Assembly: GCA_965541585.1 (NCBI GenBank)
Contig: CBEUCH010000004.1
Span: 32,001-96,000 of the forward strand
Length of the DNA stretch: 64,000 bases
Direction of reading: 5' to 3'
From: an uncultured bacterium
Lineage (GTDB): Bacteria > Zixibacteria > MSB-5A5 > UBA10806
This document shows, piece after piece, positions 18,001-21,000 of this stretch (the stretch's first letter is position 1; each line of letters starts with the position of its first letter). A program made the position numbers.

Positions 18001-21000
18001 AAGCCTTTTGCAAAACCATATTGCAATGAAGTTGCAACGCCTGCACATTCTGTATATTGCCCCTTTGCCATTTTTCGAATAGCTTCTTCATCTCTGCTTA
18101 CGGCAAATCCTATTCTAAATCCAGTTGCAGCAAATGATTTAGAAAAACTGAATACAGAAATGGTTTCTGGATTGTCAAATTCTAGCATGCTCGTATGTTT
18201 TTTATCATCAAAAATAATCTCGTTGTAAGGTTCATCGGAGACAATTATAGTCCCATATCTTCTACACAGCTCATCTATCAGTCTTGATTCTTCAAAAGAA
18301 AATACTTTTCCTGTAGGATTTTGAGGAGAATTATGATAAAATGTGGATGGATTGTATTCATGTAATGCTTTTTCAAGCTTATTGGGATTAAAGGTTAGTC
18401 TTTCATTTATTTCCTCTAGAGGAAGGGTTTTAAATTCTGTTTGTGTGTAAGGAAATATATTCCCTGTTAAACAAGGCCAATACGGGCTAAAGCCTAAAGC
18501 CTTTCTTTTTTCAGGTAATTTAAAGCTAAGTTCTAATCCTTGTTGCCCGCCATTGACACACACAATGTTATCCCGAGTTAAATCATTTATGCCTTTTTCT
18601 TTAAGATAGCTCAAAACAGCATCTTTAAACCAGTCCGCTCCTCCTGATTTTGGATATTTTGTGAGCCCCTTAGCTACCAGTCCTTCTATAATACCGTCAA
18701 TAATGTATTCAGGCGTGTCAAGTCCAATTAATTCTCCTCTCTGAAATTTAATAATCGCTTTTTTTGTTTTTTCTTCAATTTTCCCAACATCTTCACTAAT
18801 TGCAACAATTGTTGATAATCCCATTTCAAAACAAGGATGAAATCTGTCTTTTATATTGTCAGTCATTTTTCCCCTAATCAGAGATCAAGAATTCTTTTTA
18901 AAGATTTACTCAGCCTAGAATATATTAATTACTCTTTTCCCTCTTCTTCCTTTTTTCTTCAGCCTTAACCTGATCGGGGAAAATTTCAGAAAGCCTTTTG
19001 TTGCCTTGTTTTAAAACTTTGAGGTTTGTCTGAGATATTGCAGGTGAGATAATCTTTCTCCTCACAGTTTTACTGAGTCTCAATCCTTTTTGCCCGTATT
19101 CTTAGTGTTTCTTATTTCTTTCTCTTTTGGGTCTTTTTTCCATACCTTTGGCATATGTCAATAATACTTTTTTTAAGCCAGTTCCTTCAACATCTTTCAT
19201 TGCAGTAAATCCTGCCTTGTCACTCGCACATGTAATTTCAAATTCATATCCCTCCAGATCAGGAGAAATGATCTTGACTTCTATGTCTTTAAGCACTAAT
19301 TCTGCGAATTGCTTTGAAGGCCCTACTTTTTCCCGGATTCTTTCCCATCTGAGCAAATAGCTACGTAATAATTCTTGCCGCGCTTATAAAATAACCCAAT
19401 ATCTTCTCCTCTCCGGCCCGGGCACTAAATGTGTCACATGGCCTTCTGAGAAGATTACAGTTAAAACGTAACTGTTTGTCAAGCAATAAAATGAGTGGTC
19501 AGATAAAAATAATAGCGGTGCGCCGCTATTTGTTGCCTGATGACCTCAATTCTTATCCCAAGATGCTGATATCTTTATATACAAGGATGAATTAGCGGGA
19601 CCGGTCAACGTCCGGGACGTCATACCGACACACATCATTCGCATAAATAGAATGCGATGGCCGGCTGCAATTATACGGACCATCAAAGGTCGGAATGTCT
19701 GATTACTTATCTTTTTGCGCTGGTCTTCCAGACCTGCTACCCCCCAGAGTGGTATGACATTGAATTTGTGAGATCATAATCAAATTACCTCTATTTTGAA
19801 TTAATCCTTTCATTCCGCAATTGTTTAAAAGGGAAACATCAATACCGGCCGATAGAATAACTCCTTAGATCTACTCCATTAACAACTTCTGGTGATTTGC
19901 GCAATAAAATCAGGCCCGCAATATAATCAGACCTGATATTAGCCCGATAATGTTATTGACGAGGACAATAGTCCCTTATTGACCTGTTCAGGATATTTGG
20001 GAGGAGTGAGAAACTATTACCCCTGATCCCTTGAAAATAGAGATGAAAGACTCGACCGTTAAAAATGAAATAATCGATGCTTCTATCCCTGCCACAAGGA
20101 AGCTCCATCAGATTTCTCAATCGGTAAGCGATAAATTATATAAAAATCTATTCCATCACTCAAATGATGCAATCATAGTGCACGATTTATCCGGCAATAT
20201 ATTGGATGTGAATATGAAAGCGGTGGAGCTGTTTAATTGTACCAGTTCTAAATTCAAGACACTTAATATGCGTGATCTGCATCCTCCCACCGCCGTCGAG
20301 GCATCAAAGAAGGCGCTTGAGCTTATTTCTAAAAGCGGATCCGTCAATTTCGAAATAGATTTCAGAAAAAGTGACGGTGAAATTTTCCCTGCGGAGGTTT
20401 CGTCCAGCTTGATCGACGCGGACGGGTTAAGAATTATCCATGGCATTATCCGGGATGTGACTGAAAGAGGAACAGCAGAAAAAGAGCTGAGGGAAATCGA
20501 AAAGACGAACCTTGCGCTCTTGAATGCTCCAGCGGATCCGTCTCTTCTGTTAGACAGGGAAGGGATAATATTGGCCCTTAACAATGGAGCGGCAAGAGCT
20601 CTCGGCGGACCTGTAGGTGAATTGATTGGCAAGAATATATTAGGATATTTCCCCCCTGATCTGGCCAAATCCAGAAAGGATTATATTGACAGGGTGTTTC
20701 AAACTGGAAAGCCTGCTCGATTTGAGGATGAGATGTCTGGAGTTATTTATGATAATTCCATTTATCCTGTTTTCGATGAGAAAAGCAAGGTGGATAAGGT
20801 AGCCGTGTTTGCAGCCGATGTCACCGAACGCGTGCAAGTTGAGAAAGCGTTGCGGGATAGCGAAGAACGCTACAGGGCTATCTGGGAAAACTCCCCCATA
20901 GGGATATGCCTTACAGATCAAGAAGGTAAATATGGATACGTAAATCCCACTTATTGTGAGATTTATGGTTATTCCAAGGATCAACTGGTGGGCAAAAGAT

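Follow-up and report, generated by a model that had tools for sequence, protein, structure and literature searches.

A low-G+C island edged by archaeal S6e and aIF2-gamma remnants in a bacterial chromosome

The window, which is the whole 64,000-nt stretch of bacterial DNA analysed here, holds a foreign low-G+C island of about 2.6 kb in which two intact genes, for an aminotransferase (AT) and a carbon-nitrogen hydrolase (CNH), lie between a relic of an archaeal ribosomal protein S6e gene and the truncated start of an aIF2-gamma gene. We read the island as one contiguous piece of a nanoarchaeal genome, of which the AT-CNH pair has been kept and the informational genes survive as scars at both ends, and we put the probability of this reading at roughly 70%. 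The features of the region are listed below.

about 16750..19360, no strand: foreign low-G+C island, about 2.6 kb (G+C profile and genome-wide ranking)
18925..19356, minus: archaeal ribosomal protein eS6/S6e relic, a pseudogene (PF01092, translation, alignment, tree and NCBIfam S6e models)
17646..18866, minus: AT, intact class I/II PLP-dependent aminotransferase, 406 aa (PF00155, E 7.2e-46)
16906..17649, minus: CNH, intact carbon-nitrogen hydrolase (nitrilase superfamily, omega-amidase-like), 247 aa (PF00795, E 1.7e-33)
16737..16859, minus: aIF2-gamma N-terminal fragment, a 40-codon ORF (PF00009, 30 bits; NCBIfam NF003077)
16303..16768, plus: remnant of a broken TonB-dependent-receptor-like outer-membrane protein gene, adjoining the island (ORFs 16303..16449 and 16439..16768)
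16274..16463, no strand: recipient-side intergenic repeat that is present in multiple copies in the host lineage
15098..16291, minus: MFS transporter gene, native flank (PF07690; 78% orthologue in the same-family genome G007)
20031..24377, plus: multi-PAS/GAF hybrid histidine kinase gene, native flank (flank annotation)
19511..19530, minus: terminator-like hairpin upstream of the relic, 8-bp stem and T-run (consensus match only)

Extent and anatomy of the island

On the low side, the point at which the aIF2-gamma homology stops places the edge of the island to within about 15 bp either way. The high edge coincides with the S6e start (19356) or falls a little above it, still short of the hairpin at 19511. 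With a G+C content of 0.342 against 0.489 for the genome, the island ranks lowest among 17,107 windows of that size, and its tetranucleotide profile correlates with that of the genome at r = 0.445, compared with the 0.78 +/- 0.10 reached by windows of the genome itself. The first-pass annotation had described a low-G+C patch of about 450 bp with the aminotransferase as a neighbouring flank; the patch in fact measures about 2.6 kb, with the 100-bp values between about 16800 and about 19300 all in the range 0.22-0.41 (0.324 at 17001-18000 and 0.346 at 18001-19000 on a 1-kb scale), and because the low G+C extends through AT, and indeed runs through all four island genes, AT is to be counted with CNH and the aIF2-gamma stub as part of the foreign block rather than as native flank. 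These four genes are co-oriented, in the order S6e relic, AT, CNH and aIF2-gamma start, and closely packed, with 58 nt between the S6e stop and AT, a 4-nt overlap between the AT stop and the CNH start, and 46 nt between CNH and the aIF2-gamma stub.

The nanoarchaeal loci compared with it have a G+C content of 0.33-0.34. We rejected the tetranucleotide signature as evidence on the donor, as it follows G+C: since a low-G+C bacterium (r = 0.93) fits the profile as well as archaea do (0.94-0.96), composition indicates a low-G+C donor and nothing narrower. The other lowest-G+C islands of the genome were considered as more archaeal fragments and likewise rejected, their contents being defence-type genes.

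The S6e relic consists of an 84-aa ORF (19356..19102, stop included) and a 52-aa ORF (19083..18925), separated by a single in-frame TAA at 19102-19104 (plus-strand numbering). Its presence in a bacterial chromosome, as first reported, is borne out by the PF01092 match of the whole locus (60.2 bits, E 4.1e-16), which is the sole such match in the genome; separately, the 84-aa ORF scores 40.7 bits (E 2.4e-10; Pfam cut-off 26) and the 52-aa ORF past the TAA 22.3 bits (E 1.3e-4). All 41 database matches of the 84-aa ORF carry PF01092, those with names being Nanoarchaeota, Pacearchaeota or 'archaeon', and the family occurs in 1/285 genomes of the host phylum, namely this one; both points had been made before and hold. 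The alignment runs from about residue 3 of S6e to its end, with two gaps of 4 residues each. In it the relic is 70% identical to P0242, the counterpart in a related strain, and 62% identical to P0243, an archaeal S6e of 146 aa, with five others at 50-57%. In the ITGASD motif the Gly kept by the other seven alignment rows is Cys in the relic, and although this genome's copy has no frameshifts, it does not offer a full-length uninterrupted S6e frame with the conserved positions. It is a pseudogene of the PF01092 family and not a working member. The genome contains neither a second S6e nor any aIF2-gamma match outside the island, two EF-Tu-like loci being present, and the host is without an archaeal/eukaryotic-type ribosome that would use S6e.

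At the other end of the island, homology of the stub to aIF2-gamma runs through codon ~35 (to about 16755). Its best NCBIfam match is NF003077 (E 5e-9, as against 4.6e-5 for EF-Tu), covering profile positions 5-38 of 412 at 35.8 bits, where the cut-off is 315; the nanoarchaeal aIF2-gamma counterpart in the locus L020 passes the same model with 510.8 bits. Its identity to nanoarchaeal aIF2-gamma N-termini is 48-78%. The ORF at 16737..16859 is thus a fragment of an aIF2-gamma gene and not a gene. Upstream of S6e, a tblastx comparison of 19340-20040 with all fetched loci gave no archaeal homology.

The genes flanking the island are of kinds usual in bacteria, including an MFS transporter, a hybrid histidine kinase and outer-membrane proteins. 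The adjoining outer-membrane remnant, whose second ORF ends in PYECF, scored 0.98 in a feature search against clusters named TonB-dependent receptor family, in one of which PF00593 is present in 16% of the members; over 16303..16768 there was no Pfam match, and this region varies between strains. An Rfam search of 15000-21000 at E <= 1, which included the repeat at 16274..16463, gave no match. The window contains no tRNA, the ORFs neighbouring the island no mobility domains, and no direct repeats bracket it. An inverted pair at 16733-16747 and 19850-19864 (13 of 15 positions) was tried as a border and discarded as chance, being one of 50 such pairs. Terminator-like hairpins are at chance level (2 found, 2.2 expected), as is the promoter scan (13 found against 11.6 +/- 3.2 in shuffles). 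By eye, TTGACA and TGTAAT can be seen 17 nt apart on the minus strand near 19479-19445, a pair that the scan did not list and for which we make no claim.

Related strains and the decay of the S6e relic

For the strain comparison we used Logan contigs instead of raw reads. Both junctions are spanned by a contig of 11,122 bp assembled from another metagenome, which aligns at 90-92% identity to 16579-18938 and 19004-20600, and two further runs gave contigs across one junction each. At 90-94% identity these independent assemblies come from other strains and not from the same reads. In addition, proteins of an 11,985-bp database contig repeat the set of S6e, AT and CNH. These data bear on the suspicion that a chimeric assembly or a mis-binned contig has merged archaeal with bacterial reads, to which the metagenome-type nature of the genome (40 contigs) lends some colour, as do the extra depth and loose ends seen at 19202-19269, which make it probable that samples of this kind also contain DPANN S6e genes. 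However, the island is embedded some 17 kb deep in the 64-kb window, at about 49 kb of contig C4, with bacterial genes on both sides, and with the same junctions crossed in other runs and the gene set repeated in the database an artefact is barely credible.

Each strain carries a different lesion in S6e. In the related strain a 1-bp deletion at 19133 shifts the frame, such that its 71-aa protein P0242 is exactly the shifted reading of the relic, and a 1-bp insertion behind 19340 has moved the start of the ORF. In run X4, a 1,186-bp contig joins 18938 to 19333, with the loss of 394 bp of the relic. Between strains 9/54 residues of the relic core differ (a count on the alignment), where the neutral expectation is about 17-20% and where AT and CNH differ by 3.7% and 13% respectively.

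It had also been proposed that S6e might be a small domesticated gene. In this form the idea is that the bacterium keeps the 84-aa N-terminal ORF as a small protein, and it draws on the ORF being still open, on the absence of frameshifts from this genome's copy and on the 71-aa ORF of the related strain, which shares the same N-terminal gaps. We nevertheless regard it as very improbable: the latter ORF has a frameshifted tail and a displaced start, the third strain has deleted nearly all of the relic, the core diverges at about the neutral rate and an otherwise invariant Gly has been lost. Judged from the TAA, the frameshift and the 394-bp loss seen in the sequences of three strains, the relic is decaying, not domesticated.

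As had been reported, the two genomes of the same genus (completeness 89% and 95%) are without the relic, there being no DNA match to any part of the island in either. Nor do they match the MFS gene or the kinase at the DNA or protein level, and a search of relatives for an empty site, with the flanks joined without the island, did not find one. The sole orthologue of the MFS gene, in G007, has other neighbours (a B12-binding protein, a homocysteine methyltransferase and a histidine kinase).

Archaeal gene order, donor and cargo

Read through its stop, the S6e relic matches 391 of 401 genomes of the phylum to which L020 belongs; the closest are about 20 small genomes at 50-65% identity, the rest being lower. 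In the S6e tree the relic falls inside a 63-row clade (support 99/95), from which only four of the Nanoarchaeota-phylum rows are missing. Within this clade the relic belongs to a subclade of 43 rows (89/88), as do G031, G032 and G033; its end branch measures 0.97 against a median of 0.35. These placements support a DPANN (Nanoarchaeota-type) origin for an S6e sequence that now stands inside a bacterial chromosome. The earlier proposal of an archaea-to-bacterium transfer of an informational gene therefore stands in so far as the S6e is DPANN-type and decaying, but S6e proves to be one edge of a four-gene fragment.

Parts of the gene order point the same way. Of 30 nanoarchaeal S6e loci taken with 1.5 kb on either side, 13 have an aIF2-gamma N-terminus 167-789 bp downstream of S6e on the same strand, and among 80 loci fetched around AT relatives S6e and aIF2-gamma both occurred near the AT relative in only two, both from Nanoarchaeota. 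In one of these (L020) AT directly follows S6e (S6e 5334-5876, AT 5956-7218, aIF2-gamma 11757-12974), and in the other (L030) it stands one gene before aIF2-gamma (S6e 966-1415, AT 5869-7227, aIF2-gamma 7869-9071). The full order S6e-AT-CNH-aIF2-gamma was found in no archaeal genome or contig.

The AT gene has AGGGGA 5 nt ahead of its ATG, and its product keeps all 69 columns that are invariant in an 18-sequence alignment, including K243, which we take from the SxSK motif to be the PLP lysine. It is 96.3% identical to P0001 of the related strain and just 40-47% identical to the archaeal copies. Its subfamily occurs in 8/285 genomes of the host phylum and in 0/13 of the host's own family. In the AT tree the window sequence lies outside the Zixibacteria/Ignavibacteriales clade and does not group with archaeal rows, the sister clade consisting of bacteria and one row named Nanoarchaeia; a low-G+C member of that sister clade (L090) has bacterial neighbours.

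Between strains CNH has changed more than AT, its identity to P0122 being 87.0%. Its residues E39, K107, E116 and C142 are invariant across 12 sequences, E39, K107 and C142 presumably forming the Glu-Lys-Cys catalytic triad known from the superfamily. Its best NCBIfam matches, the amidohydrolase PRK10438 and deaminated glutathione amidase, are both below cut-off, and neither AT nor CNH reaches an equivalog cut-off. The CNH subfamily occurs in 1/285 genomes of the host phylum and in 0/401 genomes of the nanoarchaeal phylum (E <= 1e-25, with a query that does recover G000). The nearest named relatives are bacterial, namely a Marinimicrobia MAG (62%) and Aquificota (47-56%). AT-CNH adjacency recurs at 8 bacterial loci among the 80 fetched. 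The closest pair, P0002 and P0123 (AT 58%, CNH 63% identity), is on an unplaced 2,977-bp contig, a co-location that we deduced only from the equal contig size reported for both proteins. AT and CNH of this type are absent from the five nanoarchaeal genomes whose S6e comes nearest to the relic, and a metagenome search neither returned this 2,977-bp contig nor found a donor contig.

Such a distribution could also have arisen in two steps, with an archaeal scrap reaching from S6e to the aIF2-gamma start arriving first and AT-CNH, or CNH alone, being inserted later from a low-G+C bacterial donor; in a variant, a bacterial cassette acquired archaeal ends around it. The bacterial affinities of CNH and its absence from the 401 nanoarchaeal genomes speak for this, as do the mixed AT tree, the 8 bacterial loci with AT-CNH pairs and the unplaced closest pair. 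It would, however, call for two independent insertions of 0.33-0.35 G+C into one spacer of roughly 100 bp in a genome of 3.5 Mb; in nanoarchaeal genomes this AT subfamily is already placed beside S6e or near aIF2-gamma, and the spacing is compact throughout. On balance we consider a two-step origin rather unlikely.

On the reading of the island as a single nanoarchaeal fragment, an ancestor of the bacterium and its close strains would have taken up Nanoarchaeota-type (DPANN) DNA corresponding to about 16750-19360. The fragment would have been cut from the S6e-to-aIF2-gamma region of the donor, which in that archaeal clade would hold variable accessory genes, and for this reason would comprise S6e, AT, CNH and the first ~35 codons of aIF2-gamma; because archaeal-only genes stand at its edges, the last step would have run from archaeon to bacterium. 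Integration may have been by illegitimate recombination next to the decaying outer-membrane-protein gene. The cell contact first suggested finds no support: neither a mobility gene nor a tRNA or flanking repeat was found, and the data fit uptake of free DNA equally well. The S6e and aIF2-gamma ends, useless in a bacterium, would then have eroded neutrally, and selection would have kept the AT-CNH pair, which was probably the reason that the foreign DNA was retained. From their sequences we infer that the two proteins form a pair of transaminase and omega-amidase type: AT would act as the transaminase and CNH would hydrolyse its 2-oxo-amide product, rendering the transamination irreversible. 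Candidate substrates would be glutamine as amino donor and 2-oxoglutaramate for the hydrolase. Adjacent transaminase and omega-amidase genes are known from B. subtilis as mtnE/mtnU.

Comparison with known systems

The coupling of a glutamine transaminase to an omega-amidase has been termed the 'ketoglutaramate ratchet' (PMC6302742). The island AT, translationally coupled to a Glu-Lys-Cys CNH, resembles the glutamine transaminase/omega-amidase pair, with the difference that neither island protein reaches an NCBIfam equivalog cut-off.

The two ends recall a known archaeal arrangement. A conserved S6e-eIF2g-Utp24 section occurs in Asgard and other archaea, according to PMC10833476, and the island shares with it, and with the 13/30 nanoarchaeal loci, an S6e followed on the same strand by aIF2-gamma. 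The island departs from it, however, in that AT-CNH stands between the two genes, S6e has become a pseudogene, aIF2-gamma breaks off after about 35 codons and Utp24 is missing. A literature search limited to titles and abstracts returned no description of an archaeal S6e relic in a bacterium.

Exchange between DPANN archaea and bacteria is itself familiar, bacterial genes in DPANN archaea being a topic of PMC8204110 and PMC7414124. The island likewise concerns DPANN-bacteria exchange, and its AT family mixes DPANN and bacterial rows, whereas its last step would have run in the opposite direction, from archaeon to bacterium. Interdomain transfer is usually inferred from the phylogeny of metabolic genes and is often ambiguous, and the trees and match lists of AT and CNH are also mixed. 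The island is unusually legible in that stubs of two archaea/eukaryote-only genes, in archaeal order, would fix the direction, the donor clade and the fragment size. Both fates can be seen in it side by side, with operational genes kept and informational genes rotting, in three ways in three strains, which makes it a tidy illustration of the complexity hypothesis. A search image follows, in that fragments of archaeal ribosomal or translation genes at the edges of low-G+C islets may betray DPANN-to-bacteria transfers. A more speculative thought, which we rate as quite improbable, is that the S6e-aIF2-gamma interval of one marine-sediment Nanoarchaeota clade is a hotspot of accessory genes whose DNA has entered a co-occurring bacterium, the stubs serving as a donor barcode; if recurrent, this would amount to a standing DNA channel, and possibly to a physical episymbiotic association with a bacterial instead of an archaeal host.

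Genomic islets acquired by bacteria from archaea provide the closest parallel. The island is like them in composition, patchy distribution and retained metabolic genes; pieces of its gene order, though not the full four-gene order, recur in the donor group. It differs in that no integrase, tRNA target or flanking repeats, and hence none of the mobility signatures of an acquired island, were found. It differs further in carrying two archaeal translation-gene pieces at its ends, from which donor clade and transfer direction can be read independently of the phylogeny of the cargo.

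S6e relic and its decay

An archaeal ribosomal protein S6e gene with an in-frame stop had been reported on the minus strand by the first-pass annotation, and both profile searches and alignment bear this out:

19356..18925, minus strand: S6e relic, one in-frame TAA at 19104..19102, Pfam family PF01092 (Ribosomal_S6e) in both halves

The 84-aa ORF matches PF01092 with 40.7 bits (E 2.4e-10, cut-off 26, profile positions 33-94) and the 52-aa ORF past the stop with 22.3 bits (E 1.3e-4, positions 91-124); read across the stop, the whole locus scores 60.2 bits and is the sole match to this family in the 3.52-Mb genome. 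In an alignment together with P0242 (a 71-aa S6e piece of a related strain) and six archaeal S6e proteins, the relic begins at approximately S6e residue 3 and extends to the C-terminus; its N-terminal third shows two 4-residue gaps, and it carries Cys at the Gly of ITGASD, which is kept in the other seven rows. It is 62% identical with the 146-aa S6e protein P0243. The relic is real, far past chance. As also claimed, S6e is absent elsewhere in the host phylum, PF01092 being found in one of 285 genomes, namely the host itself; in a control search of 14 well-known genomes only the four archaea were positive.

The relic is decaying, as had been proposed, by different lesions in each strain. The host genome carries the TAA, and metagenome run X1 has lost 1 bp at 19133 and gained 1 bp behind 19340. 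In run X4, a 1,186-bp contig joins 18938 straight to 19333, with 394 bp and nearly the whole relic gone, while the aminotransferase gene (AT) is still 94% identical. With the 19133 deletion introduced, the window DNA gives the tail of P0242, ...PKEKE.RNT..TG.KD-stop; the 71-aa protein is therefore a frameshifted relic and not a conserved small gene, which makes the suggestion, based on its shared N-terminal deletion, of a domesticated small gene unlikely. Ahead of the frameshift, the host and the related strain differ at 9 of 54 relic residues (approximately 17%, counted manually on the alignment), against a neutral expectation of 17-20% simulated with the window's own codons and the observed 8-9.5% nucleotide divergence, and between-strain differences of 3.7% for AT and 13% for the C-N hydrolase (CNH), a comparison that is rough because nucleotide divergence was taken overall and not per gene.

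The S6e closest to the relic core (78%) is P0244, 121 aa long and from a 2,359-bp metagenome contig, which has GFTAM and LSEIFPDQ in common with the relic. Its frame is still open, yet 38 alignment columns (KNRPKGLRLRKT...KEGSKK) are missing; it may be naturally short or, like the relic, a copy undergoing erosion.

Extent and insertion site of the island

The low-G+C patch had been put at approximately 450 bp, with AT as a flanking gene. Its actual length is approximately 2.6 kb: G+C per 100 bp stays at 0.22-0.41 throughout from approximately 16800 to 19300, and the island 16750-19360 (2,611 bp, G+C 0.342 compared with 0.489 for the genome) is the lowest of 17,107 same-size genome windows (mean 0.489, sd 0.026). 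Its genes share the minus strand, are closely spaced and follow the relic in this order:

58 nt after the relic, minus strand: AT, intact class I/II aminotransferase, 406 aa (PF00155, E 7.2e-46)
4-nt overlap with AT, minus strand: CNH, intact C-N hydrolase, 247 aa (PF00795, E 1.7e-33)
46 nt after CNH, minus strand: 40-codon ORF, N-terminal fragment of the archaeal translation initiation factor aIF2-gamma (NCBIfam NF003077)

The 40-codon ORF has NF003077 as its top NCBIfam match (E 5e-9, profile positions 5-38 of 412; EF-Tu behind at 4.6e-5) and is 48-78% identical, up to codon ~35, with the N-termini of nanoarchaeal aIF2-gamma genes, and on this similarity it is assigned to the N-terminus of that gene. 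The homology ends at approximately 16755, coinciding with the rise in G+C. From the G+C profile and the gene content, AT belongs to a foreign block with an archaeal translation gene at either end.

The next-lowest-G+C islands of the host, C15:76500-83500 and C10:115500-121500, both hold defence-type genes, the former a DNA methylase, an AAA ATPase and an ADP-ribosylglycohydrolase, while in the latter a TIR-domain protein fused to a periplasmic-binding domain accompanies an ankyrin protein and a radical-SAM protein. No archaeal translation gene lies in either island.

Assembled (Logan) contigs, not raw reads, from four metagenome runs of four studies were aligned to 15800-20600. A single 11,122-bp contig of X1 covers 16579-18938 (189 differences in 2,360) and 19004-20600 (152 in 1,597), crossing both island junctions at 90-92% identity; a contig of X2 spans the low junction, and one of X4 links AT with the upstream flank. 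The set recurs in database proteins of an 11,985-bp contig, with AT at 96.3% (391/406), CNH at 87.0% (215/247) and the 71-aa S6e piece. As these contigs come from other strains, the junctions are no artefact of one assembly, and the island is in the bacterial chromosome in several strains.

On its low side the island adjoins the 3' end of a broken gene, and a hairpin lies on its high side:

16303..16768, plus strand: TonB-dependent-receptor-like C-terminal remnant, broken (ORFs 16303..16449 and 16439..16768; Atlas feature score 0.98 to TonB-dependent receptor clusters)
16274-16463: multi-copy intergenic repeat, ~80-190 bp, five further copies in the host genome
19530..19511, minus strand: terminator-like hairpin

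The remnant has no Pfam match; its final ~10 bp are shared with the end of the aIF2-gamma homology, and strains vary over 16303-16768 by skips of 161-224 bp. Both of two further repeat copies examined are intergenic; many copies (73-94% identity) occur in genomes of the same genus, family and order, and depth is very high in all four runs. The repeat has no Rfam match. Possible identities are a REP/MITE-like element specific to the lineage and a regulatory RNA. Above the S6e start no archaeal homology was detected, and no tRNA, integrase, transposase or bracketing repeat was found at the island. Uptake of free DNA, followed by illegitimate recombination into a decaying intergenic region, would be the probable route; the cell contact between DPANN archaea and the bacterium that had been proposed is unsupported.

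Origin of the block

Among the best 80 of 92 loci with AT relatives (one genome per species), S6e and aIF2-gamma lie near AT solely in two Nanoarchaeota loci (G+C 0.33-0.34):

L020: S6e 5334-5876; AT 5956-7218; aIF2-gamma 11757-12974
L030: S6e 966-1415; AT 5869-7227; one gene; aIF2-gamma 7869-9071

In both, AT sits inside the S6e-aIF2-gamma spacer beside other variable genes. With X written in for its stop, the read-through relic matched 391 of 401 genomes of the phylum of these loci, a sample including six genomes flagged unpublished and counted in tallies only; the strongest matches, at 50-65% identity (E 1e-20 to 1e-43), came from approximately 20 small genomes of 0.5-0.9 Mb, and the remainder were weaker. 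Within 1.5 kb either side of the best 30 S6e loci, the aIF2-gamma N-terminus follows S6e by 167-789 bp on the same strand in 13, and AT takes its place in one, the L020 genome. The S6e-eIF2g(-Utp24) section is present in other archaea too, according to the excerpted text of PMC10833476. Judged by gene order, the island is an apparent archaeal S6e-to-aIF2-gamma frame with AT-CNH in the spacer, which points to a nanoarchaeal donor. In a careful maximum-likelihood S6e tree (71 rows, with Thermoplasmatota and Bathyarchaeia as the root), the relic, with an end branch of 0.97 against a median of 0.35, falls within a 63-row clade (support 99/95) holding all but four Nanoarchaeota-phylum rows, and within its 43-row subclade (89/88) alongside the genomes of L020, L030 and a Pacearchaeota locus. 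The DPANN origin claimed for S6e thus agrees with both tree and gene order.

The spacer, usually short, is widened to approximately 6 kb in L020 (5334-12974) and L030 (966-9071) and contains a P-type ATPase and AT, along with small hypothetical ORFs and a shared protein of ~180-210 aa; filled with such variable genes, it looks like an accessory-gene hotspot. One nanoarchaeal S6e match (L140, G429:C16:24034-24378) has two internal stops (one TGA, one TAA) and a few others show one TAA; match overhang, error or a real break are all possible. At 19202-19269 (S6e core, GYEFEIT.ASDKAGF), runs X2-X4 show extra contig depth with many loose ends, best read as real nanoarchaeal S6e genes of the same sediments at 80% DNA identity or more; on that reading, candidate donors would live alongside the recipient population.

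The AT subfamily (E <= 1e-40) is present in eight of 285 host-phylum genomes, the host and seven of another family (48-51% identity), and in none of 13 genomes of the host's own family. In a quick 127-row tree, the window AT groups with the related strain's copy P0001 and the unplaced P0002 (support 98), outside a 16-row Zixibacteria/Ignavibacteriales clade (support 100). Its sister clade is mixed (Elusimicrobia, a row named Nanoarchaeia and the low-G+C metagenome contig L090, whose neighbours, pyruvate formate-lyase, SpoIIE phosphatase and TPR Ser/Thr kinase, are bacterial), and Nanobdellota and Pacearchaeota clades attach one node deeper, in a polytomy. CNH occurs in one of 285 host-phylum genomes and none of 401 nanoarchaeal genomes at E <= 1e-25; its nearest named relatives are from a Marinimicrobia MAG (62%) and Aquificota (47-56%). 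The closest AT-CNH pair (58% and 63%) is apparently on an unplaced 2,977-bp contig, co-location being judged from matching contig size only. By distribution the cargo is foreign to the host, and the phylogeny of both genes is ambiguous, so that the donor domain rests on the two archaeal ends and synteny, not on cargo trees. A two-step origin of the island we regard as improbable.

The earlier interpretation thus stands for origin and decay and fails for transfer of an informational gene as such, S6e being one end of a four-gene block with intact AT-CNH. The island is an unusually legible interdomain islet, its donor still named by its edges; the literature searched, mostly titles and abstracts, yielded no description of an archaeal S6e relic in a bacterium.

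Likely function of AT-CNH

AT is translationally coupled to CNH, a hydrolase of the nitrilase superfamily. AT retains all 69 positions invariant among 18 relatives, and CNH retains E39, K107, E116 and C142, invariant in 12 sequences. In eight bacterial loci among the best 80 of 92, a C-N hydrolase 26-36% identical with CNH lies directly beside the AT relative, and the pairing is therefore a recurring unit:

L021, L022, L026, L031, L042, L043, L049, L075: AT-hydrolase pair loci of Krumholzibacteriia, Fibrobacteraceae, Ignavibacteria and unclassified bacteria

The top NCBIfam matches of CNH, amidohydrolase PRK10438 and deaminated-glutathione amidase, are both under cut-off. The best-supported reading is that AT would act as a transaminase, with its 2-oxo-amide product then cleared by CNH as an omega-amidase-type enzyme. 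Such a predicted transaminase with a predicted omega-amidase-type hydrolase resembles the 'ketoglutaramate ratchet', a concept outlined in excerpts of PMC6302742.
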